DNA of 64,000 nucleotides from Candidatus Nanohalarchaeota archaeon (GCA_022729235.1 JALDAJ010000001.1:192001-256000), one strand, 5' to 3'. Positions 9,950 to 56,481 are shown, numbered from the stretch's first letter. The notes: generated by a model not told the origin, from the sequence alone. Numbers and translations: made by a program.

Positions 9950-10324
9950 ATGCAAGTTACAATCGGAACACAGGACGGCGAAACGTTTCAAACCGAAGTA
10001 GACGACGCTTCTCAACTCACAGGAAACAAGATAGGAGACGAGATAGAAGGCGGAATCGTCGGACTCGACGGCTACACCCTCAGAATTACAGGTGGAAGCG
10101 ACAGCGACGGTTTCCCGATGAGAGAAAGCATCGACGGAACCGGCAGAAGACGCGTTCTAATAGGAGAAGGCTCCGGAATCAACGAGGAAGAAGACGGAGT
10201 CAGGAGAAGAAAATCCGTGAGAGGAAACACCATTTCCGAAGACATCCAACAGCTCAACACGCAGGTAGTAGAAGAAGGAAGCAAAAGCGTCGAAGAACTA
10301 CTCGGTGAAGAAGACGAAGAATGA
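9950..10324 (+). CDS. rps6e: 30S ribosomal protein S6e
   Basis: ITGGSDSDGFPM, RRRKSVRGNTI. Confidence 0.95.
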   Translation: MQVTIGTQDGETFQTEVDDASQLTGNKIGDEIEGGIVGLDGYTLRITGGSDSDGFPMRESIDGTGRRRVLIGEGSGINEEEDGVRRRKSVRGNTISEDIQQLNTQVVEEGSKSVEELLGEEDEE

Positions 10325-10380
10325 TTCGAAAATCGGAGATTTTCTACATCACACAGAAACAACGAGGTAGTTTCGAATGA
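10319..10380. repeat. Junction hairpin insertion, GAATGA duplicated at 56-nt offset
   Basis: GAATGA at 10319 and 10375; contains GAAAATC-GGA-GATTTTC hairpin and GAGGT upstream of the new ATG. Confidence 0.7.
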
Positions 10381-11564
10381 CAGGGACACCCGAAGTAAAC
10401 ATCGGACTGGTAGGTCACGTAGACCACGGGAAGACCACCTTGACGCAGGCTTTATCCGGTAAATGGACGGACGAGCACTCTGAAGAACTGAGAAGAGGTA
10501 TCACTATCAGGATTGGTTACGCCGACATAACATACTACGAAAACAGTGACGGCGAACTGAACGTCGACGGAGACGGAGAAGAAGTAAGAACCGTTTCACT
10601 TGTTGACGCACCAGGGCACGAAACGCTGATGGCAAACGTTCTTTCTGGAGCCGCCATAATGGACGGCGCAGTACTGCTTATCGCGGCGGACGAGGAATGC
10701 CCGCAACCACAGACACGGGAGCACCTAGCCGCGCTCGACATGATAGGTATCGACAACATCGTCATAGCGCAGAACAAGATAGACCTCGCCGATGAGGATC
10801 AGGTAAAGGAGAACTACCAGCAGATACAGGAGTTCGTGGAGGGAACGGTCGCGGAGGACGCGCCAGTTATCCCTATAAGCGCCCAGCACGGCGTCAATAT
10901 CGATGCACTACTGGAAGCTATCGACAGGGAAATCCCTACCCCCGAGAGAGAACCTGGCGCGGAGCCGAAGATGCTTGCCGCGCGCTCGTTCGACATCAAC
11001 AAGCCAGGCACGCCTATAGAAGACATCAGCGGAGGCGTAATCGGCGGAAGCCTTGTCCAGGGAGAACTGGAAGAGGGTGAAGAAATCGAGCTGAGACCTG
11101 GTAAAAGAGATGGTAAAAACTGGGAGCCGGTAACGACAACTATAGAAAGCATCATGCAGGGCTCCGAACAGACCGGTAAAGGTGATCCCGGCGGTCTACT
11201 CGCGATAGAGACCGGTCTGGACCCGTCCATGACTAAATCAGACGGTCTCGCAGGCAATGTCCTCGGACGTGAAGGAGAACTTCCGGAGACTACAAATCAG
11301 CTGGAGCTGGACGTTGACCTCATGGAAGCTCTCGTAGGGGCTGAGGAAGAGCAGGAGATAGAGAACATCAAAGAGAAGGAGACTCTGATGCTTAACGTAG
11401 GTACCCAAAAAAGCGCTGGAGCAGTTACACAGGCCGGAAAAGACGTGAGAATACAACTCAAGGTACCTGTCTGCGCAGACGAAGGAGACAGAGTGGCGAT
11501 TTCCCGGCAGATAGGCTCTCGATGGCGTTTAATCGGTCATGCGCAGATAAAGAGCCTTGAATAA
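10377..11564 (+). CDS. eif2g: Translation initiation factor aIF2 gamma subunit
   Basis: GHVDHGKT, RGITIRIGYA, DAPGHE, QNKID, RSFDINKPG, WRLIG. Confidence 0.97.
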   Translation: MTGTPEVNIGLVGHVDHGKTTLTQALSGKWTDEHSEELRRGITIRIGYADITYYENSDGELNVDGDGEEVRTVSLVDAPGHETLMANVLSGAAIMDGAVLLIAADEECPQPQTREHLAALDMIGIDNIVIAQNKIDLADEDQVKENYQQIQEFVEGTVAEDAPVIPISAQHGVNIDALLEAIDREIPTPEREPGAEPKMLAARSFDINKPGTPIEDISGGVIGGSLVQGELEEGEEIELRPGKRDGKNWEPVTTTIESIMQGSEQTGKGDPGGLLAIETGLDPSMTKSDGLAGNVLGREGELPETTNQLELDVDLMEALVGAEEEQEIENIKEKETLMLNVGTQKSAGAVTQAGKDVRIQLKVPVCADEGDRVAISRQIGSRWRLIGHAQIKSLE

Positions 11565-11606
11565 CCACGCGGTTTTTTATAACCCAAGTATCTAGTTGAT
11601 GGTTAT

Positions 11607-24994: not shown

Positions 24995-25081
24995 GTATAA
25001 ACCCTCGCGGGTTTAATGGCCGAGAAACCGTTAACGGTTTCGTTCGGTTTAAAAGAGTTCGTTTCGAGGATTGAACACACG

Positions 25082-25378
25082 ATGTCAGACGGAAACAAGT
25101 CACAGAAAGCGGAAGAATTCCCGAAGAGAGGGAACTCCTTCGAGGGAGAGGTAGAGTCCACGAAGATGGACAAGTCCGCGACAGTAAGATGGGCGTATTC
25201 TGAAGAAGTCCCGAAGTATGAGCGTTACGAGAGAAGAAATACCAAGATAACCGTTCACGTCCCGGAAGATATCGAAGTAAGCGAGGGCGACCATGTAAAA
25301 GTTGTCGAGACCCGCCCGATTTCCAAGACCAAAAGCGCCGTGATAACAGAAATAATTCAAAACGGTGACGAGCAATGA
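25082..25378 (+). CDS. rps17: 30S ribosomal protein S17
   Basis: RGNSFEG.V.S.KMDK, PKYERYERR, ETRPISKTK; TATA TTTAAAAG at 25048. Confidence 0.95.
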   Translation: MSDGNKSQKAEEFPKRGNSFEGEVESTKMDKSATVRWAYSEEVPKYERYERRNTKITVHVPEDIEVSEGDHVKVVETRPISKTKSAVITEIIQNGDEQ

Positions 25379-25435
25379 AGCTTTCCGCAGGAAAGACTTC
25401 TCGCAGAAATCACCCGAAAGGTGATTTCGAGTGAA
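25364..25435. repeat. Junction hairpin insertion, SD+start duplicated at 56-nt offset
   Basis: GGTGA-N6-ATGAA at 25364 and GGTGA-N6-GTGAA at 25420; TCGCAG-AAATCACC-CGAAA-GGTGATTT-CGA hairpin. Confidence 0.8.
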
Positions 25436-25829
25436 ACCGGTAGGAGCAAATATTACAAGGACTCTGGACAAGGAAGCTGTTCTCACATGCGCTGACAACT
25501 CTGGCGCCCAGAAACTGCAAATAATCGGTGTCAAGCACACACAGGGCAGGCGTTCAAGAAGAGAGTCAGCTGGTGTAGGCGACATCGTAAAGGTCAAGGT
25601 TCTGAAGGGAGACCAGGAAGTCATGCACCAGGTCTTCGACGCAGTTATCGTGAGACAGGCAAAAGAATACCAGAGAGCCAACGGCATGAGGATTTCGTTT
25701 GAAGATAACGCAGCTGTACTTGTAGAGGAAAACATGCTACCAAAAGGATCTGAAACCCGTGGACCGATCGCGAAAGAAGTAGTTCAACGCTTCAGCCCGA
25801 TCGGAAAAATTGCTTCACAGGTGGTGTAA
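25431..25829 (+). CDS. rpl14: 50S ribosomal protein L14 (GTG start)
   Basis: CADNSGA, AVIVRQ, FEDNAAV, GPIAKEV. Confidence 0.97.
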   Translation: MKPVGANITRTLDKEAVLTCADNSGAQKLQIIGVKHTQGRRSRRESAGVGDIVKVKVLKGDQEVMHQVFDAVIVRQAKEYQRANGMRISFEDNAAVLVEENMLPKGSETRGPIAKEVVQRFSPIGKIASQVV

Positions 25830-25893
25830 AATCATGACAAATGATTTTACGGCTCGCAGAAAATCTCTGATTTTCGAGTGGTGTAAAAAATGA
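25821..25893. repeat. Junction hairpin insertion, ATG duplicated at 56-nt offset
   Basis: GTGGTGTAAAATCATGA and GTGGTGTAAAAAATGA flank an inverted copy (ATGATTTTAC) and TCGCAGAAAATC-TCT-GATTTTCGA. Confidence 0.85.
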
Positions 25894-26645
25894 GCGAAAC
25901 AGAGAACTGGAGCAGGGAATGGAACTCAAGCACGGATCCTTCCAAACAGCGCAAGTACAGGGATAACGCGCCGCTCCACGTAAAAGACAAGATGATTTCA
26001 GCTAACACCTCCGAAGTTATCAGGGAAGAACTCGGCACACGTTCGATCCAACTGAAAGTGGGTGACCGGGTAAGAGTCATGAGAGGCGATGAGAAAGGTA
26101 AGGAAGGAATCGTCAGCGACATCGACAGGGAGGAAGAAAAAGTATACGTACACGGCATAATTGTTGAACGAACAGATGGTACTGAAAGAGAAATCGCACT
26201 GAGACCGTCAAACCTGCAAGTCCAGGCGATGAATATCGAAGACGACATGAGGATGGAGAAATACGATATCGATGACTTCGAAGCTATCCGCGTTGAGGAA
26301 GAAGAGATGGAAGAAGCCCTCGAAGAAGACGAGGAAGGAGAGATGATGGAGCAGATGCAGACCGGAGAAAGCTCCCTGGAAGCAGGCGAAGACGAGGAAG
26401 AAGACACCGAGGATGAAGAGGAAACAGAAGACGAAGTAGACGAGGAGACATCCGAGGAAGAAACAGCAGAAGACGAAGATGCTTCCGGAACCGACTACGA
26501 TGACATCGTTGACAACACGATCAGCGACGCCAAAGAACAACTACAGGAACTCGAAGAACCAGACTACCAGGCAGCACTCGAAGCGGAAGAAAATAATAAA
26601 GATCGTAAAACCTTCAAAGAATGGCTTGAGAACAAAGCAGAGTGA
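25890..26645 (+). CDS. rpl24: 50S ribosomal protein L24 with long acidic linker and extra C-terminal domain
   Basis: PSKQRKY...APLH, GDRVRVMRG, PSNL; long C-terminal extension. Confidence 0.95.
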   Translation: MSETENWSREWNSSTDPSKQRKYRDNAPLHVKDKMISANTSEVIREELGTRSIQLKVGDRVRVMRGDEKGKEGIVSDIDREEEKVYVHGIIVERTDGTEREIALRPSNLQVQAMNIEDDMRMEKYDIDDFEAIRVEEEEMEEALEEDEEGEMMEQMQTGESSLEAGEDEEEDTEDEEETEDEVDEETSEEETAEDEDASGTDYDDIVDNTISDAKEQLQELEEPDYQAALEAEENNKDRKTFKEWLENKAE

Positions 26646-26651
26646 TAATAT

Positions 26652-27314
26652 ATGGCACACGATAAACGACTCCCGGCACCAAAGCATTACCCTATCAAGA
26701 GGAAGGAGACTAAGTACATCTCCACTATAGAGGGTTCAAGAAGCCGTGAAAACGCTGTTCCCGCGGTAGTAGTGCTGAGAGAGATTCTGGGATACGCAGA
26801 GAACGAAACAGACGCGAAAAAGATAGTACAGGACCGCGAACTACTTAGAAACGGAGAACCGGTAACCGACATCAGGCAGGGTATCGGAATCCTTGATACC
26901 GTGGAGCTTCCAAAAACGGAGGAGGCTTACCGCGTACTGAGAAGCGGTCAAGACCTGAGATTTGTACCTGTAACAGATGAAGAGAAAGTCGTCACAAAAA
27001 TAGTAGGTAAAGATTCTGAAGGCGACGGTTACGTCTACCGGCTTCATAACGGAGAGAATTACAGGACGGATGACGAATACGCGACAGGTAACACGCTCAT
27101 CTTCAACTCCTCGGTAACCGAAGTAGAACTGGAAGAAGGAGCGCAGGTAGTAGTTATAGACGGTAAACACGCCGGTCAGATAGCAGAGCTTAAAGAGATA
27201 AGCGAACACCGCATGAACCCGGACATCGGCGTTATAGAAGCTGATACAGAGTTTGAGACACAGCTTAAAAACCTTGTAGCAGTGGAAAAGGTCCAGCTAG
27301 GTGAAGAACAGTGA
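26652..27314 (+). CDS. rps4e: 30S ribosomal protein S4e
   Basis: KRLPAPKHYPIKRK, LHNGEN, GKHAG. Confidence 0.95.
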   Translation: MAHDKRLPAPKHYPIKRKETKYISTIEGSRSRENAVPAVVVLREILGYAENETDAKKIVQDRELLRNGEPVTDIRQGIGILDTVELPKTEEAYRVLRSGQDLRFVPVTDEEKVVTKIVGKDSEGDGYVYRLHNGENYRTDDEYATGNTLIFNSSVTEVELEEGAQVVVIDGKHAGQIAELKEISEHRMNPDIGVIEADTEFETQLKNLVAVEKVQLGEEQ

Positions 27315-27364
27315 ATGCTGAAAGCGTTCACTTCGCAGAGAATCACAGGGTGATTTTCGAATGC
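27310..27364. repeat. Junction hairpin insertion, GAATGC duplicated at 46-nt offset
   Basis: AGTGAATGCT/AGCGTTCACT hairpin then TCGCAG-AGAATCAC-AGG-GTGATTTT-CGA and new ATG. Confidence 0.8.
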
Positions 27365-27870
27365 AGGAGATGAAGGAAATCCAGATCGAAAAAATAGTAG
27401 TTAACGCAGGGGCAGGAGAAGTAGGAGATGAGGTCGAGAAATCAGTAAGGCTCCTGGAAAAGCTTACCGGCAAACAGCCAGTAAAGACAGAGTCCCGTCG
27501 GGAAGCCAAGACTTTCGGTCTTAGAGGCGGACTCGAGATAGGTGTTAAGATAACTCTTAGAGGAGAAGAGGCAAGAGAATTCCTGGAAAAAGTACTTCCA
27601 GCTGCTGACAACGAAATCGATGCCTCAAGCTTTGACGGCAACGGCAACTTCGCGTTCGGTATCTCAGAGTACATCGACGTACCAGGAGTAGACTATGACG
27701 GAGATATCGGTATGAGAGGGTTCGAAGTAGTTGTAAACCTTGAAAGACCAGGATACCGTGTAAAGCGGCGCGACTACAAGCCTTCAGAAGTCGGAAAAGA
27801 CCACGAGGTCTCCGATGAAGAAGCAAAGGAGTTCGTTGAAGAGGAACTTGGTGCAGAGGTGACAAACTAG
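27361..27870 (+). CDS. rpl5: 50S ribosomal protein L5
   Basis: [29 protein letters not shown]. Confidence 0.97.
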
Positions 27871-27872
27871 AT

Positions 27873-28097
27873 ATGGGATACGAAGACGTACTAGACCAGA
27901 TCAAGCATAAGGAAGGTGACCGGAAAGCCTTCGAGAAACATAATACTCCAAAGGAGAGAGATTACGGAAAATCCAAGAAAGAATGCCGGCGCTGTGGAAG
28001 GACAGGAAGAGGAGTCATCTCAAAATACGGACTCAACTACTGTCGACAGTGCTTCCGCGAGATTGCGGAAGAGCTCGGCTTTAAACAGCTCAAGTAA
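27873..28097 (+). CDS. rps14: 30S ribosomal protein S14 (zinc-binding, N-terminal extension)
   Basis: CRRCG...[13 protein letters not shown]. Confidence 0.95.
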
Positions 28098-28108
28098 GGT
28101 AGATAACA

Positions 28109-28498: not shown

Positions 28499-28507
28499 GT
28501 GATACAG

Positions 28508-29820: not shown

Positions 29821-29828
29821 CGATAAAC

Positions 29829-30341: not shown

Positions 30342-30347
30342 TACACG

Positions 30348-31016: not shown

Positions 31017-31017
31017 G

Positions 31018-31077
31018 ATGACGAAAATCAGAGATTTTCTAAATCACCAGGAACTCAAAGGTGAGTTTCGGTAATGA
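31018..31077. repeat. Junction hairpin insertion, ATGA duplicated at 56-nt offset
   Basis: GAAAATC-AGA-GATTTTC plus GAACTCA-AAGG-TGAGTTT hairpins; new AGGTGA SD. Confidence 0.75.
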
Positions 31078-31421: not shown

Positions 31422-31435
31422 GCAGGTGATTGATA

Positions 31436-35780: not shown

Positions 35781-35908
35781 TCTTCGACGCCTTGCTGGAT
35801 TTGATTATCCTCACATCTCTCACGAGAAGTTCAGGGTTCAAATCCGAGAAATCCAGTTCTGGTTTCGAGTTGCAGAAAATCTTTTGATTTTCGAACCCAT
35901 ATCCGGCG
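35758..35908. repeat. Hairpin insertion(s) with partial duplication of tRNA-Ser 3' end
   Basis: GGGTTCAAATCC at 35758 and 35834, inverted copy GCTGGATTTGA at 35794, GCAGAAAATC-TTTT-GATTTTCGA at 35872. Confidence 0.7.
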
Positions 35909-35962
35909 CTTATCTAATATTCAGCCGGTTTTATAACCGAACTTCACCAAATCTTGTCCATC

Positions 35963-36811: not shown

Positions 36812-36869
36812 ACCCTGTTCCTGGGACTCCTTCCTTTATTTTTACTACTTGCGTCTTGAAGCCAGTTCT

Positions 36870-38237: not shown

Positions 38238-38248
38238 ATCTCTCCACT

Positions 38249-39889
38249 TCAAGTTGGACAAATCATTTCTCCAAGTTTTTCAGTCAACCTGTGATTTTCC
38301 TCGGGATCCACGGGAACCTCGATTACATCTACTTCTCCACTGTCCAGCGACTTCTCCAGTATTTCTGTAAGCTGGCAGGGCGATTCAACTCTGTGACCTT
38401 GAGCACCATAGCTCTCCGCCAGCTTCACGAAGTCAGGATTGTCGAACTCTGCGCCGAACTTGTGACCGTATTCATCCACCTGTTTCCATGTTATCGCACC
38501 TAATTCCTGATCATTGAATACCAGAAGCGTCAAATCAAGATTTAGACGTGTGGCTGTTTCAAGCTCTTGGGCGTTCATAACAAAACAGCCATCCCCTATT
38601 GTAGCTACTATATTCCTCTCAGGTTCCGCCAGCTTTGCACCTATAGCTCCAGGAAGCGCTATCCCCATAGTAGCCAGTCCGTTTGAAACAATGAACGTGT
38701 TGGGTTCATAGGTAGGGTATAACCTGCTCATCCAGAGTTTATGGGCTCCCGTATCTGTTATAAGCACGTCATCATCCGCCAGATGTTCTCTAAGATCATG
38801 CACTATTCTCTGGGGCTTCATAGGAAGTGAATCATCATTTGTGTACTTGTTAAACTCGTCTTCTATAAACCTCTTCAGGTCTCTCGAATATTCAGCATCT
38901 TTTCCTTCTATATCCTCCTCTTTCAAAGTCCTCAAGGATTGTCTAATATTCCCTACCATCTGTGCTGAAGGCCTGTAATGTTTGTCGACTTCCGGAATCC
39001 GTGAATCAATATGAATGATTTCCTTATCTCTATCAGGATTCCATTTTTCAGGATAATATTCTATGTAATCCGTACCTACGGCGATAATAAGGTCGGCCTT
39101 TTCTATACCACACATCACATAATCCCGGTTCTGAAGACCGATTGTACCGATAGAAAGGTCTTCTCTAGCCGAAATAGCTCCTTTACCCATGAAAGTAGTC
39201 ACGACAGGAATATTATTCTGTTTTACAAACTGTGTGAGCTCCTCAGACGCGCCGGAACGTATAACGCCGTTACCAGCTATTATATACGGATTTTCAGAAT
39301 CCTCTATTAGTTCAGCTACTTCTCTGACAGTTTCAGCGTCCGGTTTTGTATCGCTGTCAAGTCCGGGTTTCGGCAGCAAAGGTTCGCCAATATCCTTGTT
39401 TTCCAGGACATCCGCGGGAAGCTCTATATGAGTGGCTCCCGGTTTCTCAGACTCAGCAATCTGAAAGGACTTCCTGACTATTTCAGGTATAGCCTCCGGT
39501 TTTTCCACGGACTTATTGAACTGGGTGACTTCACTTAGAATATTTACGACATCAATATACTGGTGTGATTCCTTGTGCGTCTTATCTCTTTCTAGTTGAC
39601 CCGTTAAAGCTACTAGCGCGCCTGCATCCAGGTTTGCGTCAGCGACAGCTGTAATAAGATTCGTGGCTCCCGGTCCAAGAGTTGAAAGACATACCCCTGC
39701 ATCTCCTGTCAGCCTTCCATAAACATCCGCCATGAAAGCCGCTCCTTGCTCATGCCTTGTTAAAACAAGATCGATATCGGAGCGAGAAAGTTCGTCCATT
39801 ATACTCGTGGTCTGTTCACCCGGCAAACCAAAGATGTATTCCACTCCTTCATTTTCTAATGCCTTGATGAGAAGCTCAGAGCCTCTCAT
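38249..39889 (-). CDS. ThDP-dependent acetolactate-synthase-like enzyme (candidate 2-oxoglutarate decarboxylase)
   Basis: FGLPGE, RHEQGAAFMADVYGRLTG, TLGPGATN, SNGLATMG, GDG..N motif; coupled to SSADH, no small subunit. Confidence 0.85.
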   Translation of the reverse strand: MRGSELLIKALENEGVEYIFGLPGEQTTSIMDELSRSDIDLVLTRHEQGAAFMADVYGRLTGDAGVCLSTLGPGATNLITAVADANLDAGALVALTGQLERDKTHKESHQYIDVVNILSEVTQFNKSVEKPEAIPEIVRKSFQIAESEKPGATHIELPADVLENKDIGEPLLPKPGLDSDTKPDAETVREVAELIEDSENPYIIAGNGVIRSGASEELTQFVKQNNIPVVTTFMGKGAISAREDLSIGTIGLQNRDYVMCGIEKADLIIAVGTDYIEYYPEKWNPDRDKEIIHIDSRIPEVDKHYRPSAQMVGNIRQSLRTLKEEDIEGKDAEYSRDLKRFIEDEFNKYTNDDSLPMKPQRIVHDLREHLADDDVLITDTGAHKLWMSRLYPTYEPNTFIVSNGLATMGIALPGAIGAKLAEPERNIVATIGDGCFVMNAQELETATRLNLDLTLLVFNDQELGAITWKQVDEYGHKFGAEFDNPDFVKLAESYGAQGHRVESPCQLTEILEKSLDSGEVDVIEVPVDPEENHRLTEKLGEMICPT

Positions 39890-39936
39890 AATCGAATCTC
39901 TCCTCCCGGAGATTTCTGCCTATCCATACTAATGTG

Positions 39937-39957
39937 TAAAAATGTTGCACATTTTTA
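39937..39957. promoter_or_regulatory. 9-bp inverted repeat TAAAAATGT-TGC-ACATTTTTA, candidate operator
   Basis: Perfect palindrome between the HTH regulator and the decarboxylase/SSADH pair. Confidence 0.55.
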
Positions 39958-39961
39958 AACA

Positions 39962-40270
39962 TTAAAGTCGTTCGATTGCCTCCCTCTTTTCCTCCATCCA
40001 CAAATCCAGTTCTTTACTGGCTTTCTCCCTGAGACTCTCAGAATCCATTGAATAGACATGTTCCCTCCCATTTCTTGAAACCTTAACCAAACCTGCTTTC
40101 TTAAGTCCTGACAGGTATCTCTGAACAGTGCTTCTGTCAAGATTGATACTATCAGATAGCTCTTTAACCGTCATCTCCTCTCCACAAAGCTCCATCAGGA
40201 TATCTACATCCCTACTTTTCAGCTTGAAAACAACACTCAAGAGCTCCTCTAACTCGGGGGAACACTCCAT
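39962..40270 (-). CDS. Winged-HTH transcriptional regulator (TrmB/ArsR-like)
   Basis: MTVKELSDSINLDRSTVQRYLSGLKKAGLV. Confidence 0.85.
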   Translation of the reverse strand: MECSPELEELLSVVFKLKSRDVDILMELCGEEMTVKELSDSINLDRSTVQRYLSGLKKAGLVKVSRNGREHVYSMDSESLREKASKELDLWMEEKREAIERL

Positions 40271-40474
40271 ACATGTAAATAAAGAAACTATACTTTTATT
40301 CTTGAAACGTATCACAGCCAGCCAGAAGCCCGAATCCCTTTAACACGACCTTAATCAGTACCTGATTAATAGCTACTAACACGCGATTTCTGCAGAAGCC
40401 GTAAGAGAAACGAGTGTTCAAGGGACACACACAACATTAATAAACTTTGCGGTAACAACAGTTCTCTTGTAACC

Positions 40475-40681
40475 ATGACAGAATGCGAAATCTGTGGTAG
40501 AACCGAGAAAGAACTCAGCGAAGAGTTCGGACGCGAGATCAAGGTTAGCGAGCATGAAGGCATGAACAAGTGCCAGAAATGCCTCAGCGAGTACCAGAGA
40601 GAGACAGGGGAAGAAAAAGTCGAAGACCTTGATAACGAGCTCGCGGAAAGTAAGGACTGGAAAGACGTCGTAACGGCGTAA
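40475..40681 (+). CDS. Small zinc-finger-like protein
   Basis: CEIC...CQKC, acidic tail. Confidence 0.65.
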   Translation: MTECEICGRTEKELSEEFGREIKVSEHEGMNKCQKCLSEYQRETGEEKVEDLDNELAESKDWKDVVTA

Positions 40682-40712
40682 CATTTCTATTTCTTCCTTC
40701 CAAAACTTAGAC

Positions 40713-41063
40713 ATGCCACAGCCAGAAAACTATCTCAGAACCATCTACGAACTCTCCGAGAAAGGAGAGAGTTCTACAGCCAACTCCGAAGTAGCTGAGG
40801 CTCTAGACGTATCAGACGCAAGCGCCTCGGAAGCCATACAGAAACTGGAGGAGCGAAATCTAGTGTGCAGAGCACCCTACAAAGGCATTACCCTGAGCCC
40901 ACCCGGGAAAAAGCAGGGAGAAAAACTCTCCAGAAAATACAGCGTACTTGTAAAATTCTTCGAATGGTTAGGAGTTGAAAACCCTGAAAAAGAAGCTGTT
41001 GAAATAGAACACGCGATTTCCAGTGATGCCACGGAAAAGATAGAAGAACTCGTCAACAGATAA
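40713..41063 (+). CDS. DtxR/MntR-family metal-dependent regulator
   Basis: ENYLRTIYEL, VAEALDVS.ASASE, PYKGITL, EIEHAIS. Confidence 0.9.
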   Translation: MPQPENYLRTIYELSEKGESSTANSEVAEALDVSDASASEAIQKLEERNLVCRAPYKGITLSPPGKKQGEKLSRKYSVLVKFFEWLGVENPEKEAVEIEHAISSDATEKIEELVNR

Positions 41064-41150
41064 CATGTCAACGATATCAGTCCTCCAGGAACTAGTCCCC
41101 CAAGAATAGACTGTTTTCTTAAGTGTTGCCTTCTTTCAGTAAAATGTACG

Positions 41151-41223
41151 AAACAGCCCCCTGGTGTGAACGCAGATACGAGATCTGCTTGAAGCACACA
41201 GGAAGCAAATAGCCCCCTGGTGT
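41151..41223. repeat. Duplication of tRNA-Gln 5' end at 56-nt offset
   Basis: AGCCCCCTGGTGT at 41155 and 41211 flanking a GCAGAT-ACGAG-ATCTGC hairpin. Confidence 0.8.
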
Positions 41224-41343
41224 AGCGGTCAATCATAGCGGCCTTTGGCACCTCAAGTTCTCGTCAGGGAACGAGGACTTTGAAGAGCTCTGCTCTTCAG
41301 GTGAAGATAGCCGCTGACCCAGGTTCGAATCCTGGGGGGGCTA
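41211..41343 (+). tRNA. tRNA-Gln(TTG) with 60-nt intron (41249-41308) at 37/38
   Basis: AGCCCCC/GGGGGCT acceptor, GCGGC/GCCGC anticodon stem, GTTCGAATC; BHB: CTTT/GAAG helix, bulges GG|C and AT|A, outer ACCT/AGGT. Confidence 0.93.
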
Positions 41344-41346
41344 ACC

Positions 41347-41628
41347 ATGGCATCAGAAGTACGTGCATCCCACATCCTGGTCGACAGCAAGGAAAAAGCA
41401 CAGAACATAAAAGAACAGCTGGACAACGGAAAAAGCTTTGAACAGCTGGCAAAGGAGGCAAGCGAATGTCCCTCATCGGAGAAAGGAGGAGACCTCGGAT
41501 TTTTCGGAAAAGGTGACATGGTCAAGCCGTTCGAGAGGAAGGCGTTCAGCATGGATGTCGGCGACGTTTCCGGACCTGTCAAGACAGAGTTCGGGCATCA
41601 CCTGATCAAGAAGACTGATGAACGCTGA
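41347..41628 (+). CDS. ppiC: Single-domain parvulin peptidyl-prolyl isomerase
   Basis: RASHILV, SECPS..KGGDLGFF.KG.MVKPFE, VKTEFG.HLI. Confidence 0.92.
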   Translation: MASEVRASHILVDSKEKAQNIKEQLDNGKSFEQLAKEASECPSSEKGGDLGFFGKGDMVKPFERKAFSMDVGDVSGPVKTEFGHHLIKKTDER

Positions 41629-41678
41629 ACGCTGTCCACCCTTTATAAAATTTAGAGTGAAGTTGAGTGGTACGGGTT

Positions 41679-42170
41679 ATGTCTGAGACAAAAGAAGTTG
41701 TAAGAATTGCAAGAACAGATATCGACGGCACCAAGCCTGTAGCCAAAGCTATAACCTCACTGCAGGGTGTCGGCGAGACTTACGGTCACGCAGTATCACA
41801 GGTAATAGATGTAGATACAGAGACCAAGATAGGAGACCTTAGCGATGAAGAAATCGATAAAATCGAGGATACTATAAGAAGCCCGGAGGAAGCCGGAATC
41901 CCTGAATGGCTCAGAAACAGAAGAAAAGATAGGGAAGAAGGAGATGACCAGCACCTGATAGGTTCGGATCTTGAACTGAAAGAAGAATTCGATATCAGGC
42001 GCCTGAAAGAAATCGACTCGTACAAGGGCTGGAGACACGAAATCGGACTACCTGTTAGAGGACAGAAGACCAAGTCCTCGTTCAGATCAGGTTCAAAAAT
42101 CGGTGTTTCACGCGCACGCCTAAGAGAAGAAGCTTCCGAAGGCGGCGGAGACGACGAAGGTGAGGAGTAA
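41679..42170 (+). CDS. rps13: 30S ribosomal protein S13
   Basis: RIARTDIDG, WL.NRRKD, SYKGWRH..GLPVRGQKTK. Confidence 0.96.
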   Translation: MSETKEVVRIARTDIDGTKPVAKAITSLQGVGETYGHAVSQVIDVDTETKIGDLSDEEIDKIEDTIRSPEEAGIPEWLRNRRKDREEGDDQHLIGSDLELKEEFDIRRLKEIDSYKGWRHEIGLPVRGQKTKSSFRSGSKIGVSRARLREEASEGGGDDEGEE

Positions 42171-42192
42171 TGCACGGACAAGGTGATTTTGA

Positions 42193-42783
42193 GTGGTAAA
42201 AAAACTGAAGAAGCAGTACGAGACTCCTAACGAAGGATGGAACCAGGAAAGAATTAACAGAGAAATAGAGCTTATGGAGGAATACGGACTGAAGAACAAG
42301 GAAGAAGTCTTCAAAGCCCAGAGCCAGCTAAGAAGCCTGAGACGCGAAGCCCGTAACCTGGTAGCATCGGAAAACGAGAAGGAAAGGAAAGATCTTATTG
42401 AGAAAGCCAACCGGCTAGGGATTGTAAAAAAGGATGCAGAGCTTGAGGATATACTATCCCTAAGTGTTACAGACTTCCTTAACAGGAGACTCCAGACCGC
42501 AGTAAACAGGCGAGGATATACAGACACAGTGCAGGAGGCACGACAGCTTGTTGTTCACGGTCACGTTTACGTCAACGGACAGAGAGTAAACGTCCCGAGC
42601 TACATGCTTACACAGGAGGAAGAAAAAGGTATAGAGGTAATACTGCCTGAACCAGAAGATGAAGAAACAGAGCAGGAAGAAGATGAAGCCGAAGCAGAAA
42701 CAGGTGAAGAAGAGGAAACGGAAGAAAATGAAGAAGCAGAGGAAAAAACTGACGAAGAATCCGAAACGGAGGAAGAAGAATGA
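42193..42783 (+). CDS. rps4: 30S ribosomal protein S4 with acidic tail (GTG start)
   Basis: [27 protein letters not shown]. Confidence 0.96.
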
Positions 42784-43160
42784 CTAAAGGAATAGTTAAC
42801 ATCTACTCAAGCTTCAATAACACGATAATCCACATAACTGATGCTACAGGAGCTGAAACAATTTCCCGTATATCATCAGGCATGGTTACCGACAAAGGTC
42901 GGCTCCAGGGAGAACCGTTCCCTGCTATGAAGGCAGCGAAACAAGCAGTAGAGGAGGCACTGGAGAAAGGCATAGAAGAAGTAGACATCCAGGTAAGAGC
43001 ACCTGGAGGACAGAAACAGAAGATGCCCGGGAAAGGCGCACAGCCAGCTATCCGTGCGATTTCACGAAGCGAAATCGATGTCGGAAACATCGAAGACGTT
43101 ACACCCGAACCACACGACGGCGTAAGAGCCAAAGGCGGTAAGAGAGGTCGAAGAGTATGA
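42780..43160 (+). CDS. rps11: 30S ribosomal protein S11
   Basis: [28 protein letters not shown]. Confidence 0.97.
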
Positions 43161-43729
43161 ATATCGAAGTTGAAACAGAAGAAGACGGCGTCATGGAACT
43201 AAGACTTGAAAACGGGAACGCCGCAGTAGCGAACACTCTAAGACGCACAATGATGGCTAAAGTACCAACCCTCGCGGTACAGCACCTGGATATCGTGAAG
43301 AACGAGTCAGGTATTTTCGATGAAGTCCTGGCTAACAGGGTCGGACAGGTACCATTTACTATACCCGATAACGTTGAAGAAGGCGATACCGTGAACATCG
43401 CCCTGAAACAGGAAGGACCCGGAACAGTACTCGCTGAAGATCTCAAAACAGACAACGACGAGGCAGAACCTGTCAACCCAGAAGCTGTATTAGTCAGCCT
43501 GAAAGAAGATCAGGCACTGGAATTCGAGGCAGAAGCACAGCTAGGACGCGGTAAGGACCACACCAAACACCAGGGAGGAACAATCGGCTACGAGAAAGTC
43601 GATGAAGGAGAATTCCTCTTCAGGATAGAATCAACTTCCGGCTACAGCAACGAAGAACTCGTGGAAGCTGCGATTCAAGAAGTCAAGCAGGAACTTGATG
43701 AGTTCGAAGAAGCAGTTGAAGAGCTGTAG
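43157..43729 (+). CDS. rpoD: RNA polymerase subunit Rpo3 (D), short form
   Basis: [37 protein letters not shown]. Confidence 0.93.
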
Positions 43730-43814
43730 AATTTTTCTCTCATTCTGGATAACCTACCTCCCCCACTTTAAACTCTTCTACATTAATTCTCCTCTAGAGC
43801 CAGCTGTATCCAAC

Positions 43815-43965
43815 GCCGGGGTGGCCGAGTGGCTAAAGGCGCGGGACTTAAGTTCCTCAAGTTCTCCGACAGGGAGAACGAGGACCTAGAAGCGAACGCA
43901 CGTGAGCTTCGTGAGGATATCCCGTCCCCGCAGGGGGTGCGCGAGTTCAAATCTCGCCCCCGGCA
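43815..43965 (+). tRNA. tRNA-Leu(TAA) with 66-nt intron (43853-43918) at 37/38
   Basis: GCCGGGG/CCCCGGC acceptor, CGGGA/TCCCG anticodon stem, long variable arm, GTTCAAATC; relaxed BHB. Confidence 0.9.
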
Positions 43966-44043
43966 AATAATTTTTTCTGGCGAGATTTAATAAGCGGCAG
44001 AAAATCTCCGATTTTCAACCGAGTTCAAATCCCTGCCCCGGCA
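43943..44043. repeat. Duplication of tRNA-Leu 3' end (78-nt offset) with inverted copy and GCAG hairpin
   Basis: GAGTTCAAATC...CCCCGGCA at 43943 and 44021; AAATCTCGCC/GGCGAGATTT; GCAGAAAATC-TCC-GATTTTC. Confidence 0.8.
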
Positions 44044-44085
44044 TTTTCAGTGCTTACAAGCTGTAAGAACAGACCTTCCGAAAAG

Positions 44086-44101
44086 TTTAGGCAAGCCTAA
44101 A
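44086..44101. promoter_or_regulatory. DtxR/MntR-like operator TTTAGGC-AA-GCCTAAA
   Basis: Perfect palindrome resembling the DtxR-family TTAGG..GCCTAA box; similar sequence overlaps the start of the DtxR-family gene at 40696-40720. Confidence 0.5.
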
Positions 44102-44121
44102 AAAGGTTGTACTCTAGTGCA

Positions 44122-44376
44122 ATGTTTGTTATGTCCTATAGTAAAGATTTCTCCCATCTTGAAGACACAGTGAAAACCTGCCTAGGAGACGGTTATGGAG
44201 TCAGTATAGGCACCAATAATGATAATTTTGAGGTCTACGTGACACCAGCAGACGGGCTAAGCAGCGAAGAGTTGGAAAAAATTGAAGAAGACGTACGTCG
44301 AGCTATCAATCCAGGAGCATACTGCGACAGTCACAGACTTGAGGAGTTCTATAGAGTGAGAATCCGCGCCCCATAG
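44122..44376 (+). CDS. Small hypothetical protein (paralog-like to 21704..22012)
   Basis: LGDGYGVSIGTNNDNFEVYV motif. Confidence 0.6.
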   Translation: MFVMSYSKDFSHLEDTVKTCLGDGYGVSIGTNNDNFEVYVTPADGLSSEELEKIEEDVRRAINPGAYCDSHRLEEFYRVRIRAP

Positions 44377-44446
44377 CTCTCAAACCATGACACCAGCGCA
44401 ACCGATTTATAAAGTTTTATCTCAACTGAATGACTACAGCCATCAG

Positions 44447-44510
44447 TGGTCTCGGTCGAACCTCTGGTTCGAGCCGTTGAGAAGATCTCTGATCTTCGAA
44501 CCGCGAGGTG
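44447..44510. repeat. Double-hairpin element in rpl18e leader
   Basis: TCGAACC-TCT-GGTTCGA and GAAGATC-TCT-GATCTTC followed by GAGGTGA SD. Confidence 0.7.
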
Positions 44511-44518
44511 AATACATC

Positions 44519-44869
44519 ATGGATAAAAACGCAGACCCAACCAACCCAGTACTTATCGAAACTCTAGATGTTCTTGAGGAGCAGGAAGCTCCTATATGGA
44601 ACTCAGTTAGAGAAAACCTTGGAAAAGTTAACCGTCAACGACCTGAAGTCAATATATCGGATATCGAAAGGATCGCAGAGGACGGAGAAACAGTTGTTGT
44701 ACCTGGTAAAGTACTTGGAGCCGGAAGACTGACAAAGAACGTTACAGTCTCCGCATTCGACGTTTCAAAAGGTGCAAGACAGAAAATCGAAGAAGACGGC
44801 GAGTTCATGTTTATCCAGGATTTAGTTGAGGAAAATCCCGAAGGAGAAGGGGTGAGAATAGTAAAATGA
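44519..44869 (+). CDS. rpl18e: 50S ribosomal protein L18e
   Basis: TNP.L, EVNIS.I, VVVPGKVLGAG. Confidence 0.95.
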   Translation: MDKNADPTNPVLIETLDVLEEQEAPIWNSVRENLGKVNRQRPEVNISDIERIAEDGETVVVPGKVLGAGRLTKNVTVSAFDVSKGARQKIEEDGEFMFIQDLVEENPEGEGVRIVK

Positions 44870-45303
44870 CTGATACAGAAAATGTGGTAGTGATCAACGC
44901 TGAAGGCAAAGTAATCGGAAGACTGGCGTCAGAAATCGCGAGAAAAGTTAGAGACGGAGAAGAAGTAAGAGTTGTGAACTCTGAAAAAGTAGTTATCTCA
45001 GGCGATGAAGAAGAGATAAAAGCTGATTACAGACAGAGACACGAGAGAGGCGCAAGACACGACGGTCCTTACTTCCCAAAGAGACCTGACAAGATACTGA
45101 AGAGAACAGTCAGAGGCATGCTACCGTACAAGAACCAAGAGGGTCGAGAGGCATTCAAAAGAGTCAAGACCTACCTGGGTGTCCCTGAAGAGTTCGAAGA
45201 CTACGAAGAAGTTGAAGAGGTCAAGGAAGGAGACGAGCTGAAGAACCGGAACTATGTAAAACTTGGCGAAGTATCCAAGCACATCGGGTGGACTCCTAGA
45301 TGA
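44866..45303 (+). CDS. rpl13: 50S ribosomal protein L13
   Basis: IGRLAS, GPYFPKRPD.I.KRTVRGMLPYK. Confidence 0.96.
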   Translation: MTDTENVVVINAEGKVIGRLASEIARKVRDGEEVRVVNSEKVVISGDEEEIKADYRQRHERGARHDGPYFPKRPDKILKRTVRGMLPYKNQEGREAFKRVKTYLGVPEEFEDYEEVEEVKEGDELKNRNYVKLGEVSKHIGWTPR

Positions 45304-45707
45304 GCGATGAAGCATTCGGAACCGGGAAAAGAAAGACAGCGAAGGCTAGAGCAAGCATAGAAGAGGGCGAAGGAACACTTAGGATTAACTCCAAGCCCCT
45401 GCACACGCTGCCCAAGATGTCCCAGCAGAGGATTAAAGAACCGCTTACCATCGCTGGCGAAGAAATAATAGAAGAAATCAGCATAGAGGTCAATAGCAAC
45501 GGGGGCGGAGTACAGGGACAGGCAGAAGCCATCAGGATGGCTATCGCCCGCGCACTAGTAGAATACACAGACAGCGACGAACTCGAAAACAAGTTCCGTG
45601 AATACGACAGGAACATGCTGGTCGAGGACCCACGAAGAACTGAGACCAGAAAACCCTCACAGTCGAGCAAAGGAGCCCGACACAAACAACAGAAGTCCTA
45701 CAGGTGA
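45300..45707 (+). CDS. rps9: 30S ribosomal protein S9
   Basis: GKRKTA.A, GGG..GQAEA, YDR..LV.DPRR, QKSYR. Confidence 0.97.
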   Translation: MSDEAFGTGKRKTAKARASIEEGEGTLRINSKPLHTLPKMSQQRIKEPLTIAGEEIIEEISIEVNSNGGGVQGQAEAIRMAIARALVEYTDSDELENKFREYDRNMLVEDPRRTETRKPSQSSKGARHKQQKSYR

Positions 45708-45769
45708 TCAGCAGTGCATTTCACTGAAATGGACTTCGCAAAAACTCACGGAGGTGAGTTTTGAGTGCA
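45702..45769. repeat. Junction hairpin insertion, AGTGCA duplicated at 51-nt offset
   Basis: AGGTGA...GTGCA twice; hairpins CATTTC-ACT-GAAATG and TCGCA-AAAACTCAC-GGAG-GTGAGTTTT-GA. Confidence 0.8.
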
Positions 45770-45962
45770 GATACCAGTTAGATGTCTTTCATGCGGAAAA
45801 GTTATCGCAGACAAGTGGGAAGAATTCCAGGAACGTACAGAAGAAGGTGAGGACGCTGGAGAAGTACTTGACGACCTCGGAGTCGACAAATACTGCTGCA
45901 GAACAATCTTCCTGACCCATGTCGACACAATCGATGAAATCGGGGAACACAAGATTACTTGA
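45765..45962 (+). CDS. rpoN: RNA polymerase subunit Rpo10 (N) (GTG start)
   Basis: IPVRCLSCGKVI, LDDLGV.KYCCR. Confidence 0.96.
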   Translation: MQIPVRCLSCGKVIADKWEEFQERTEEGEDAGEVLDDLGVDKYCCRTIFLTHVDTIDEIGEHKIT

Positions 45963-48742: not shown

Positions 48743-48780
48743 AAGTGTTATACTCGATTTCTTCTATACTCATTTACAAT

Positions 48781-48855
48781 GCGGCCGTGGTGTAGTCCGG
48801 TCAATCATCTCGGCCTTTCGAGCCGATCACCCGGGTTCAAATCCCGGCGGCCGCA
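48781..48855 (+). tRNA. tRNA-Glu(TTC)
   Basis: GCGGCCG/CGGCCGC acceptor, TCGGC-CTTTCGA-GCCGA anticodon arm, GTTCAAATC. Confidence 0.94.
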
Positions 48856-48911
48856 TAACCTTTCAGGTTCTACTTGAGCCGGGTTTTGAAGGAAAAATCC
48901 TGGCGGCCGCA
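48839..48911. repeat. Duplication of tRNA-Glu 3' end at 56-nt offset with inverted copy
   Basis: AAATCCCGGCGGCCGCA (48839) and AAATCCTGGCGGCCGCA (48895); GCCGGGTTTTGAA at 48878 is complementary to the T-arm. Confidence 0.85.
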
Positions 48912-54699: not shown

Positions 54700-55446
54700 A
54701 TGGGTCAGGTAGAGGGAATATCTTACCGTACAGAGAAAGGGGAAGGAACTCCTCTAGTCTTCATACACGGGTGGCTATGCTCGAAGGAGACCTGGGAACC
54801 TATAGATGACGAGCTTGAAATCGATAATCCGAAGGTGTTCTACGATTTGCGCTGTCACGGCGAATCCTCCTGTTCAAAATTCGACTTTGATATCCTGGCA
54901 GAGGATCTCAAAACCGTTATAGAAGAGCTCGGACTGGAGAATCCGGTACTGGTCGGGGACTCGATGGGAGGTATGGTTGCATTGACCTATGCCGTCCAGT
55001 ACGACGGTTTTTCAGGACTCTTTCTAACCGGGACCTGTGCCTCAACACCTGAACCCGAGAACTACTCGCCGCGTTTCTTCCTCGAAAAATTCGGTTCTAT
55101 GGACCGGCGTGCGTGGGCGATAGAGATAATCGAGAACTATGCCTCTGACACAGATAACGTGGAGGCGAAGGATGCAGCCCGTAAGACCCTTATAGAGGCG
55201 GGAGACACCGAAGTGATCTATGGTTTAGGTTCGATGATAAGCTACGATTTGAGAGACAGGTTAGAAGAGTTAGACACGTCTGCCGCGGTCGTGGCAGGAA
55301 AGAAAGACGGAGCGATAACTATGGAAAAATCAAAAGAACTAGCAGAGATTCTTGACGCAGAGTTACATAAAATCGATGCCACACACCTGATGTTCTCAGA
55401 GAAACCGGGAAAGATAGCCAGTTTACTTGAAAACTTCCTCTCCTGA
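54700..55446 (+). CDS. Alpha/beta hydrolase
   Basis: VFIHGW, DLRCHG, GDSMGG, G.KD, catalytic His. Confidence 0.9.
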   Translation: MGQVEGISYRTEKGEGTPLVFIHGWLCSKETWEPIDDELEIDNPKVFYDLRCHGESSCSKFDFDILAEDLKTVIEELGLENPVLVGDSMGGMVALTYAVQYDGFSGLFLTGTCASTPEPENYSPRFFLEKFGSMDRRAWAIEIIENYASDTDNVEAKDAARKTLIEAGDTEVIYGLGSMISYDLRDRLEELDTSAAVVAGKKDGAITMEKSKELAEILDAELHKIDATHLMFSEKPGKIASLLENFLS

Positions 55447-56322
55447 TTCTAAATCTTCAAATCCGTCATATCTACCCTGTAGAGAGAACCTGTTCCTGCT
55501 GTCTCCTGTCAGGAGGCAGAAGCCACGGTAATCCCTGCCTTCACCATCCACAGGATTTTCCAGCCACTCGTCTGTCGAGTAACGTTCCCTTCTCCAGTAA
55601 TCCATACCATCATCTGTAAGACTCTCCTCCCTATACTCAAAGGGAAACTTGTCGGCGATATGGTCCAGGAAGTGCTCCTGGTAAGACTCCTTCAATCCCG
55701 TCCTGTTTAACGCCGGATCCTCCGAAAGCGCTGGTAGGCGCTCTATATACTTTTTCTCTTCTACTTGGTGCTCCTCGCCGTCCCTGAGCCTTATCCACCT
55801 TTCCAGGTCCTCCGCAGGCCACTCCTCGAGAGAGACCATGCCAACGAAAAGGATTGAACCTGAATCATAGTCTACGTAAGTGCTGTTGCCTGACAGGGGC
55901 TTACCATCCAGCAGAACACATAGCTCGTCACTGTCTTCCGCGAGACCCAACCTCTCCTGTTCAACGCCAACATCCACGCAACTATCGATAATCGAAGGTC
56001 CTATGTAGCGTTCGAACAAGTCCTCTTTACGTCCCGGATACTCTCCTGACTCCGGGAGCGCTATCGCGTAGTGGAAGTCTCCCGGCTTTATCATTATCGC
56101 GGAGCCACCGGTCAGCCTCCTGTTAAGCGGCAGACCGTCACCCTTTATCTCCCCCTGATTCACGTGATTCAGGGGTTCCGATCTTGCAAGAGAGATTCCT
56201 TCTTTACTGAACTCCGAGACATCGACGACAGGCATACCTTCTCTCGCCCGGCTGAGATGGCGATTGTAAGCCGAGAAGACCTTCTCTATATCGCCTTCTA
56301 TACTCTGTAGTTCCGCGTCCAT
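55423..56322 (-). CDS. Divergent lipoate/biotin ligase-fold protein
   Basis: RRLTGGSAI and DGKPLSGNS motifs. Confidence 0.7.
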   Translation of the reverse strand: MDAELQSIEGDIEKVFSAYNRHLSRAREGMPVVDVSEFSKEGISLARSEPLNHVNQGEIKGDGLPLNRRLTGGSAIMIKPGDFHYAIALPESGEYPGRKEDLFERYIGPSIIDSCVDVGVEQERLGLAEDSDELCVLLDGKPLSGNSTYVDYDSGSILFVGMVSLEEWPAEDLERWIRLRDGEEHQVEEKKYIERLPALSEDPALNRTGLKESYQEHFLDHIADKFPFEYREESLTDDGMDYWRRERYSTDEWLENPVDGEGRDYRGFCLLTGDSRNRFSLQGRYDGFEDLESGEEVFK

Positions 56323-56400
56323 CTTTAACCGTAGATGAAAATAGGCGACACTACCTGTTAAAAAACTAGTCACCAACTCAGTTTACAGTATTCTCCATAC

Positions 56401-56481
56401 GCGGGGGTAGCCAAGAATAGCTTGCCAACCCCCTCCTCAAAAACAATAGGCAAGCCTTTACCCCATGCGGGGGTAGCCAAG
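56401..56481. repeat. Duplication of tRNA-Leu 5' end at 66-nt offset with inverted copy
   Basis: GCGGGGGTAGCCAAG at 56401 and 56467; CTTGCCAACCCCC at 56421. Confidence 0.85.

Follow-up and report, generated by a model that had tools for sequence, protein, structure and literature searches.

The window considered here is a 64,000-nucleotide (nt) stretch, positions 192001-256000 of the single contig (G000:C1) of a Candidatus Nanohalarchaeota archaeon genome, and it contains twelve pairs of short duplicated sequences for which a first-pass annotation had noted recurrent spacings, above all 56 nt. The question raised by this locus is what these pairs are and why the DNA between their copies is so similar in length. 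The positions and offsets of all twelve pairs were confirmed, and five of the pairs are real repeats. The pairs fall into two classes: seven spacers between co-directional genes for ribosomal proteins and translation, and five partial copies (12-17 nt) of tRNA ends. Our reading, to which we give a probability of roughly 0.6, is that a family of hairpin modules has inserted at translationally coupled gene junctions, where it carries a relay mini open reading frame (mini-ORF), and that the same modules occur at tRNA genes.

The seven junction pairs (10321, 25375, 25834, 31018, 27315, 45714 and 42170) share 4-6 nt around ATGA/GTG and a GGTGA Shine-Dalgarno motif; the exception is 25834/25890, a 16-17-nt duplication of the old junction with a 1-nt indel. 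Given that such pairs are too short to stand out from chance, insertion can be seen only by comparison with relatives. This comparison bore out the earlier proposal that the pairs mark insertions, since a genome of the same genus (G001) lacks the spacer at five of the seven junctions (Table 1) and, to judge from the sequences compared, the spacers between genes arose by insertion where stop and start codons had overlapped. At S17>L14 another relative, G009, has the empty site (ggtgacgaagtATGAAACC); it matches the upstream copy in the window, so that the insertion can be placed at the former ATGA overlap. The flanking genes were assigned by Pfam (S6e/aIF2-gamma, S17/L14, L14/L24, S4e/L5, S5/L30 and S9), while RpoN, S13 and S4 were named by reading their translations.

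Across a wider set of relatives, in which one genome can occur twice for the following two junctions, S17>L14 was short (-4 to 15 nt) at 29 of 34 loci and L14>L24 (-25 to 14 nt) at 23 of 33. The remaining loci held either elements of 49-58 or 103 nt (in other genera 54, 58 and 103 nt at S17>L14, and 49, 52, 52, 54, 55 and 103 nt at L14>L24) or unrelated spacers of 33, 61, 70 and 364 nt. Both genes flanking S6e>aIF2-gamma were found at 13 relatives' loci, eight of them, including that of G001, with -4 to 6 nt and the other five with 201-363 nt and no element. Five relatives had 9-15 nt at S9>RpoN and others had spacers of their own (47-94 nt), and S5>L30 in G005 is occupied by a 100-nt version with four hairpins. 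The presence and absence of elements turn over between relatives, also at junctions where this genome has a remnant or nothing and a relative has the full element (S13>S4 and L24>S4e in Table 1). The linker CTGGACTCGCAGAAAA was found again at different junctions in different genera.

In total 28 junction elements were examined, 17 from this genome and 11 from relatives, the latter represented by draft genomes; the lists were partly curated by eye and were used instead of the criterion of any 6-bp hairpin near the start, which was too loose (88/388 spacers). An element consists of about two hairpins, sometimes three or four, in a spacer of 46-72 nt, or about 100 nt with four hairpins (100-103 nt). 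Hairpin 1 lies directly after the old junction and is often exactly GAAAATC-NNN-GATTTTC. It is followed by a short linker, often CTGGACTCGCA, and by hairpin 2 of the form GAAAAYCAC(C)-loop-(G)GTGRTTTTC, then GA and then the start codon, so placed that the Shine-Dalgarno of the next gene sits paired in the 3' arm of hairpin 2. In predicted folds the spacers were more stable than dinucleotide shuffles (mean z of the minimum free energy, MFE, -2.3; 18/28 elements below -2), and at least two of the four nucleotides of the start-nearest Shine-Dalgarno-like tetramer were paired in the MFE fold of 24/27 elements.

The individual copies in the window differ in detail. The S17>L14 spacer (MFE z = -4.7) has CTTTCC/GGAAAG as hairpin 1, and its hairpin 2, GAAATCACC/GGTGATTTC, pairs the Shine-Dalgarno. 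In the L14>L24 spacer a hairpin comes first, GAAAATC-TCT-GATTTTCGA second, and last the 16-17 nt that duplicate the former junction (GTGGTGTAAAA..ATGA). The S5>L30 spacer has GAAAATC-AGA-GATTTTC followed by AACTCA/TGAGTT with the Shine-Dalgarno, and a small ORF in the S4e>L5 spacer ends 10 nt short of the L5 start. The ends of the S6e>aIF2-gamma spacer are palindromic hairpins (TTCGAAA...TTTCGAA), and other copies are without matching termini.

A coupled mini-ORF was present in 25/28 elements, where shuffling of the spacer interiors predicted 8.2 (P about 1e-14). Its first codon, ATG or GTG, either overlaps the stop of the upstream gene or lies shortly after it; the frame then stays open across both hairpins up to a stop codon that overlaps or adjoins the start of the next gene (ATGA, TAATG, GAGTGA). 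The mini-ORF is 16-23 codons long, or 33-36 in the four-hairpin versions, the three long ones (33, 34 and 36 codons) staying open as well. Stops across the elements numbered 39, 4 and 30 in the three frames, and the 28 gap lengths were distributed as 12, 16 and 0 over the classes 0, 1 and 2 modulo 3. The features that define a translationally coupled small ORF, a start at the upstream stop, a stop at the downstream start and an open frame, are thus present in the sequence. Relative to hairpin 1 the mini-ORFs use two or more frames (MKIxDF... vs MRKSxIF...), indicating that conservation concerns the hairpin and an open frame and not one peptide.

These properties also account for the lengths. 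Fourteen of the 17 junction elements of this genome have a coupled mini-ORF and 7 of the 14 are exactly 19 codons long (three of these seven counted from ATG and not from a longer scripted start), whereas the mode in relatives is 18 codons. A 19-codon mini-ORF between two ATGA overlaps gives an offset of 56 nt, so that a real mode exists at this value. The similar lengths of the inserts follow from the two-hairpin build together with the frame requirement, and the view that insert length is held better than sequence was supported.

The hairpins of the junction elements belong to a larger family with GAAAATC-NNN-GATTTTC as archetype and (GCA)GAA-stem-loop-stem-TTCGA as general form, with covarying stems. 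The census was made by regular expressions and exact patterns. Under a strict pattern, in which a GAA-stem (6 bp or longer) and a 3-10-nt loop precede TTC and either GA or AA, there were 56 matches in 112.8 kb of non-coding DNA, compared with 3.8 in shuffles (maximum 8). Nine matches were in tRNA introns (of 20 introns), 14 in tRNA 3' flanks, 6 in tRNA 5' flanks, 5 directly before start codons and 22 in other non-coding DNA, including the 16S leader, the 23S trailer and a candidate RNase P RNA. The intron hairpin of tRNA-Arg(tcg) and hairpin 2 of one junction element have identical 9-bp arms. The exact archetype palindrome occurs 11 times in this genome and is present in 36/52 genomes of the phylum, with 0 occurrences of its reversed control in all of them. 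The tRNA introns had previously been noted to fall in the same size range as the offsets; the range is indeed shared, but the cause is that 9/20 introns carry the same hairpin module and not helical phasing.

A search of Rfam 15 gave only tRNAs above threshold and no matching RNA family; at E<=1 there was nothing in 25000-31500, and in 35500-45900 only tRNAs and two matches at chance level. In literature searches that did not cover supplements, we found no description of such elements in Nanohaloarchaeota and none of relay mini-ORFs of this type in archaeal operons, and the hairpin-element family looks undescribed.

With introns allowed, ARAGORN predicted 35 tRNAs, 20 of them with introns, and at 20/35 tRNAs at least 9 nt of the tRNA's own 5' end is repeated upstream, or of its own 3' end downstream; the offsets range from 47 to 145 nt and are not quantised. 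The 3' copies span the T-loop to the discriminator base and the distal copy is usually decayed (Phe, Glu, Leu-taa, Ser-gga and the third Lys). In the window the tRNA-Gln(ttg) gene (41210-41347, with a 60-nt intron) lies directly downstream of the unit formed by its 5'-end copy and the spacer, and the tRNA-Leu(tag) gene occupies 56467-56550. The tRNA-Glu(ttc) 3'-end repeat (48839/48895) is 17 nt with one mismatch, the tRNA-Ser(gga) T-loop repeat (35758/35834) is 12 nt exact, and the tRNA-Leu(taa) repeat (43943/44021) is 12 + 8 nt, with the decayed distal 3'-end copy at 44021-44045. The tRNA-Ser(gga) trailer contains two modules of the hairpin, here called hairpin B (35848-35868 and 35875-35894), and trailers of this type are also found after tRNA-Ser(tga) and tRNA-Ser(cga). 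Some trailers (tRNA-Ser, Lys, Trp, Leu-taa, Gly-gcc and Cys) contain an inverted copy of the T-loop region. Between the two copies, strict hairpin B abuts the distal copy at seven tRNAs on the 3' side and in 2/3 cases on the 5' side; the 5'-side hairpin is reversed at tRNA-Ser(tga) and tRNA-Tyr, which shows that its orientation follows the tRNA end and not transcription. The orthologues of tRNA-Glu show turnover, with no copy in G001 and own versions in G002 and G018.

When bulge-helix-bulge motifs, which consist of two 3-nt bulges on either side of a 4-bp helix with flanking helices at the exon/intron borders, were sought with offsets fixed to the tRNA duplications, two cases were convincing and the remainder gave none. 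The near-perfect motif of tRNA-Leu(gag), at position 3/4 with helices of 6, 4 and 6 bp, is formed by a direct repeat whose unit is a palindromic leader/5'-end segment. This arrangement lies outside the window at G000:C1:931200-931440, and tRNA-Leu(tag) in the window (56401-56550) is its decayed paralogue. The other case is tRNA-Gly(gcc) (G000:C1:41424-41620, also outside the window and mis-called by ARAGORN), where a 5' exon matching the acceptor is located 59 nt upstream across a D-loop intron, with a 9-nt flanking repeat and a motif with a 4/4 central helix and flanking helices of 2 and 5. Elsewhere, two adjacent hairpin modules and then a copy of the tRNA-Pro(tgg) 3' end are found at G000:C1:158745-158794, about 900 nt from tRNA-Pro(tgg); this may be a displaced end copy.

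Table 1. Junction elements and tRNA-end copies in the window, with the same gene junctions in the same-genus genome G001.
Feature	Position	Strand	Description	Same junction in G001
S6e>aIF2-gamma spacer, two hairpins	10325..10376	+	52 nt; mini-ORF ATG 10321 to TGA 10378-10380, 19 codons	5 nt
S17>L14 spacer	25379..25430	+	52 nt; mini-ORF 25375 to TGA 25432-25434, 19 codons	4-nt overlap
L14>L24 spacer	25830..25889	+	60 nt; mini-ORF ATG 25834 to TGA 25891-25893, 19 codons	4 nt
L24>S4e			6 nt, no element	61-nt element, 19-codon mini-ORF
S4e>L5 spacer, two hairpins	27315..27360	+	46 nt; one of three uncoupled elements	overlap
S5>L30 spacer	31017..31073	+	57 nt; mini-ORF ATG 31018 to TAA 31072-31074, 18 codons	2 nt
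S13>S4 spacer	42171..42192	+	22-nt element remnant, only 3' half (GGTGATTTTGA) left; first-pass offset 23	full 55-nt element (52 nt in G004)
S9>RpoN spacer, two hairpins	45708..45764	+	57 nt; mini-ORF GTG 45714 to TGA 45762-45764, 16 codons	reads N, not comparable
tRNA-Ser(gga) trailer	35781..35900	+	gene 35634-35780; inverted T-loop copy, distal T-loop copy 35834-35845	
tRNA-Gln(ttg) 5'-end copy	41155..41210	+	13 nt exact (41155/41211), then 43-nt spacer with hairpin	
tRNA-Leu(taa) trailer	43966..44045	+	gene 43815-43965; inverted copy, hairpin B 44000-44018	
tRNA-Glu(ttc) trailer	48857..48911	+	gene 48780-48856; decayed 3' copy 48895-48911	
tRNA-Leu(tag) 5'-end copy	56401..56466	+	15 nt exact (56401/56467), then spacer with imperfect inverted copy	

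The following course of events is proposed. Two hairpins (sometimes three or four) have inserted exactly at an old stop/start overlap, mostly in ribosomal-protein operons, and the old Shine-Dalgarno and start codon have stayed at the end of the upstream gene, where they now open the mini-ORF. A ribosome that ends the upstream gene would re-initiate on the mini-ORF by means of this old Shine-Dalgarno and start, melt hairpin 2, which masks the Shine-Dalgarno of the next gene, stop on the next start codon and re-initiate there. Coupling would outlive the insertion because it is relayed through the mini-ORF. At tRNA genes the modules occupy canonical introns, leaders and trailers, and in the flanks they stand between the tRNA and an incomplete copy of one of its ends, which is usually decaying. 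Spread may occur by copy-paste with target duplications of variable length, by template switching during replication or by some enzyme; it may be speculated that template switching would fit both the variable duplications and the inverted target copies.

Several points weigh against this interpretation. Searches of this genome yielded no mobility enzyme: neither a reverse transcriptase nor a match to the Y1 transposase family PF01797 turned up, the matches to DDE (PF01609, 21 bits) and TnpB-like (PF07282, 20 bits) families are below threshold, and no cognate transposase was found in this genome, relatives not having been searched. The target duplications range from about 4 to 21 nt (approximately 4-6 nt at 10321 and 25375, 16-17 nt at 25834 and 13-21 nt at the tRNAs), unlike those of classical transposons. 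The copies are diverged with covarying stems and no sign of a recent burst, and selection on function would look alike. Three of the 28 elements have no coupled mini-ORF, and both translation of the mini-ORF and retention of the spacer in mRNA are predictions from sequence. The L14>L24 copies are orthologous in several genera and hence not independent, so that the tests overstate independence and the statistics are inflated. Finally, the genes in this genome come from our own crude gene caller.

Selection on function is the essence of an explanation that we consider possible, though unlikely, namely that the elements are not tolerated selfish insertions but domesticated regulators, in which the masking hairpin and the relay mini-ORF tune the output of ribosomal proteins or sense salt or temperature. 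A similar L14>L24 element in at least five genomes of several genera, the covarying stems, the frame that is kept open and the confinement of the elements in the window to translation-related operons all speak for it. However, close relatives differ at almost every junction examined, which would be unexpected for a needed regulator, and the S13>S4 copy in the window is a decayed remnant; the same module furthermore occurs at sites for which control of translation is irrelevant, namely the introns and flanks of tRNAs and the flanks of rRNAs. The differences between congeners from junction to junction, together with the decayed S13>S4 copy, favour tolerance, in which only inserts that preserve coupling survive, over expression tuning.

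For the tRNA class alone, the end copies could be attL/attR-like scars of integrase-mediated integration from which most of the element has been deleted. The extent of the 3' copies from T-loop to discriminator base, the usual decay of the distal copy and the tandem accretion at tRNA-Lys and tRNA-Pro(ggg) agree with this, and a published model ties integration to disruption of tRNA genes (PMC3293823). The genome has two tyrosine recombinases, one of which (G000:C1:862694-864053, 66 bits to PF00589) adjoins tRNA-Thr(ggt) with end copies on both sides, and this locus may be a real integrated element. As a general explanation it is nevertheless improbable, given that twenty tRNAs would each need a matching att element trimmed to 50-130 nt, that the DNA between the copies belongs to the hairpin family of this genome and is not foreign, and that the hairpin B abutting the distal copy on either side points to one insertion process.

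It is very improbable that the gene spacers are bulge-helix-bulge mRNA introns, cut by the tRNA splicing endonuclease and spliced so that the duplicated ends restore the ATGA overlap. The hairpin module is shared with 9/20 tRNA introns, the duplicated ends at tRNA-Leu(gag) and tRNA-Gly(gcc) form good motifs and the genome encodes one EndA, but a search that required 4 bp in the central helix and 2 bp or more in the flanking helices gave no junction-restoring candidate at any of the seven sites, and a frame-locked open mini-ORF would not persist in sequence that is spliced out.

The recurrent offsets were initially explained by a ruler-like mechanism, or by helical or chromatin phasing, under which lengths would vary about 56 nt in increments of roughly 10. 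Offsets of exactly 56 do occur in the window, at four junction elements and two tRNAs. In the genome-wide spacing histogram of exact direct repeats of at least 9 nt, there was no peak at this value: offset 56 had 12 cases versus approximately 4-5 at other offsets that are not multiples of 3, but offsets 19, 41, 106 and 145 likewise had 11-12, and only two of the 12 cases were noteworthy (both tRNA cases in the window), the other ten being ordinary coincidences in coding sequences. The ladder of 46, 56, 66 and 76 nt taken as helical turns mixes the two classes. Junction gaps below 80 nt (n = 24) had no 10-nt periodicity (Rayleigh R = 0.02, P = 0.99) and a clear 3-nt periodicity (P = 0.002), and the weak period-10 signal among tRNA offsets genome-wide (R = 0.42, P = 0.038, n = 18, five of the 18 being the values that had prompted the hypothesis) was not significant at period 10.5. 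Genome-wide, co-directional gene gaps, as called by the crude caller, were bimodal with an overlap peak and a broad 24-75-nt mode, and in most of the latter gaps a TATA-like box precedes the ATG by about 27 nt, the arrangement of leaderless genes. With period 3 and not 10 in the junction gaps, and with the two-hairpin build and the reading frame setting length, a ruler or phasing is largely refuted and its remaining probability is close to negligible.

Small palindromic or hairpin repeats are known from compact genomes, such as the bacterial repetitive extragenic palindromic (REP) sequences and bacterial interspersed mosaic elements (BIME), transposable elements of the miniature inverted-repeat type (MITEs) and the hairpin-forming elements of mitochondrial DNA, of which the double-hairpin elements of Allomyces are an example; the Rickettsia palindromic elements insert in frame into genes. 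The elements described here resemble such repeats in being short (about 20-100 nt) and hairpin-forming with many diverged copies, in lying between operon genes and inside RNA genes, and in varying in presence between close relatives. As with the Rickettsia elements, which are in frame, survivors sit where function is preserved. They differ in sitting exactly on stop/start overlaps, in the relay mini-ORF of 25/28 elements, in the occurrence of the module in tRNA introns and in the host, an archaeal DPANN lineage. Unlike MITEs, they have no target duplication of fixed length and no cognate transposase was found in this genome, and unlike REP/BIME with their REP-associated tyrosine transposase (RAYT), there is no RAYT/Y1 in this genome and the flanks are GCA...TTCGA, not GTAG or CGTC.

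In termination-reinitiation coupling, upstream translation can unmask a structured ribosome-binding site. The junctions have the corresponding ATGA/TAATG overlaps and a Shine-Dalgarno in a hairpin that the upstream ribosome would open; they differ from known translational coupling by a separate relay mini-ORF without a conserved peptide, made by insertion of a repeat element. With archaeal bulge-helix-bulge tRNA introns, which also occur at non-canonical positions and for which transposition has been proposed, they share the module, which is in 9/20 canonical introns, and two end duplications build real motifs. In contrast to such introns, the junction elements and most duplications at tRNA flanks have no motif, and the elements are outside mature RNA or between ORFs and appear to be translated rather than spliced.

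Some further features of the genome and the data are given for completeness. The genome is 1,027,595 bp (about 1.03 Mb) with 48.5% G+C, the nearest public records for the L14 protein of the window are Candidatus Nanohaloarchaea and Nanohalobium genomes, and sequencing runs labelled soda lake metagenome contain DNA of the window. Among the contigs of a single study's three DNA runs, those of the sample that is probably the source match the window without differences, a match that is not independent of the assembly, and no contig of these three runs skipped any insertion. One relevant joint, 41248>41309, skips 60 nt corresponding exactly to the tRNA-Gln intron; its source is high-depth contigs from other organisms, in which tRNA-Gln has nearly identical exons and no intron. 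Most spacers of 25-60 nt before genes lack a Shine-Dalgarno and have, about 27 nt ahead of the ATG, a TTTAAA/TTTATA box (e.g. window 40713, 33292 and 34057), and in the whole genome Shine-Dalgarno motifs are mainly inside operons, which suggests that first genes are mostly leaderless, with transcription probably from these boxes.

The ribosomal proteins L24 (window 25890-26645), S4 (42193-42783) and S13 (41667-42170) have long acidic C-terminal tails. The Pfam match of the 251-amino-acid L24 is limited to residues 14-123, and DNA of its tail is repeated elsewhere in the genome (211178-211357 and 581156-581385; 75-82% identity). In the rRNA operon (G000:C1:256554-263213) one hairpin module precedes the 16S gene by approximately 30 nt and another follows the 23S gene at about 70 nt, and between the two genes, on the opposite strand, is a tRNA-Cys (259729-259878) that has a duplicated 3' end and an intron of 73 nt. 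The RNase P RNA candidate (G000:C1:267694-268099) scored 50 bits, below the Rfam cut-off of 84, and is 406 nt long compared with a 288-position model; positions 268061-268079 in it form a hairpin-B module. Motifs like those of box C/D RNAs (TGATGA ... CTGA), which have a hairpin in common, are found just upstream of tRNA-Val(gac) and tRNA-Ser(cga), and also in the 203-nt tRNA-Met intron (G000:C1:91880-92330 and 700690-700740), and may represent guide RNAs encoded in introns or leaders.

If the proposed reading is correct, relay mini-ORFs enable a lineage whose genome is about 1 Mb to tolerate members of a dispersed family of hairpins in its most highly expressed operons, and the junctions would be a natural example of translational coupling that both constrains and is kept through an insertion. 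For annotation this would mean about 17 unannotated ORFs of 16-23 codons per genome and several mis-called tRNAs in Nanohaloarchaeota. The occurrence of the module in tRNA introns, end-duplicated flanks, rRNA flanks and RNase P RNA is moreover a testable lead on how tRNA introns arrive, which a 2026 preprint calls an open question (bioRxiv 10.64898/2026.10.13.758758); direct repeats have been reported at intron borders (PMC11782384). We tentatively raise the idea, which is rather unlikely at present, that the modules are a mobile RNA/DNA family that spreads without the bulge-helix-bulge motif and is the raw material of new archaeal tRNA introns. The same module would land, duplicating its target to a variable extent, in tRNA bodies, at tRNA ends, in the precursors of rRNA and RNase P RNA and between coupled genes. 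A module in the tRNA body would then become an intron once a spliceable motif results, duplication would rescue the tRNA at its ends, and between coupled genes only inserts with a relay mini-ORF would survive. Nanohaloarchaeota would in that case display the arrival of introns in progress.

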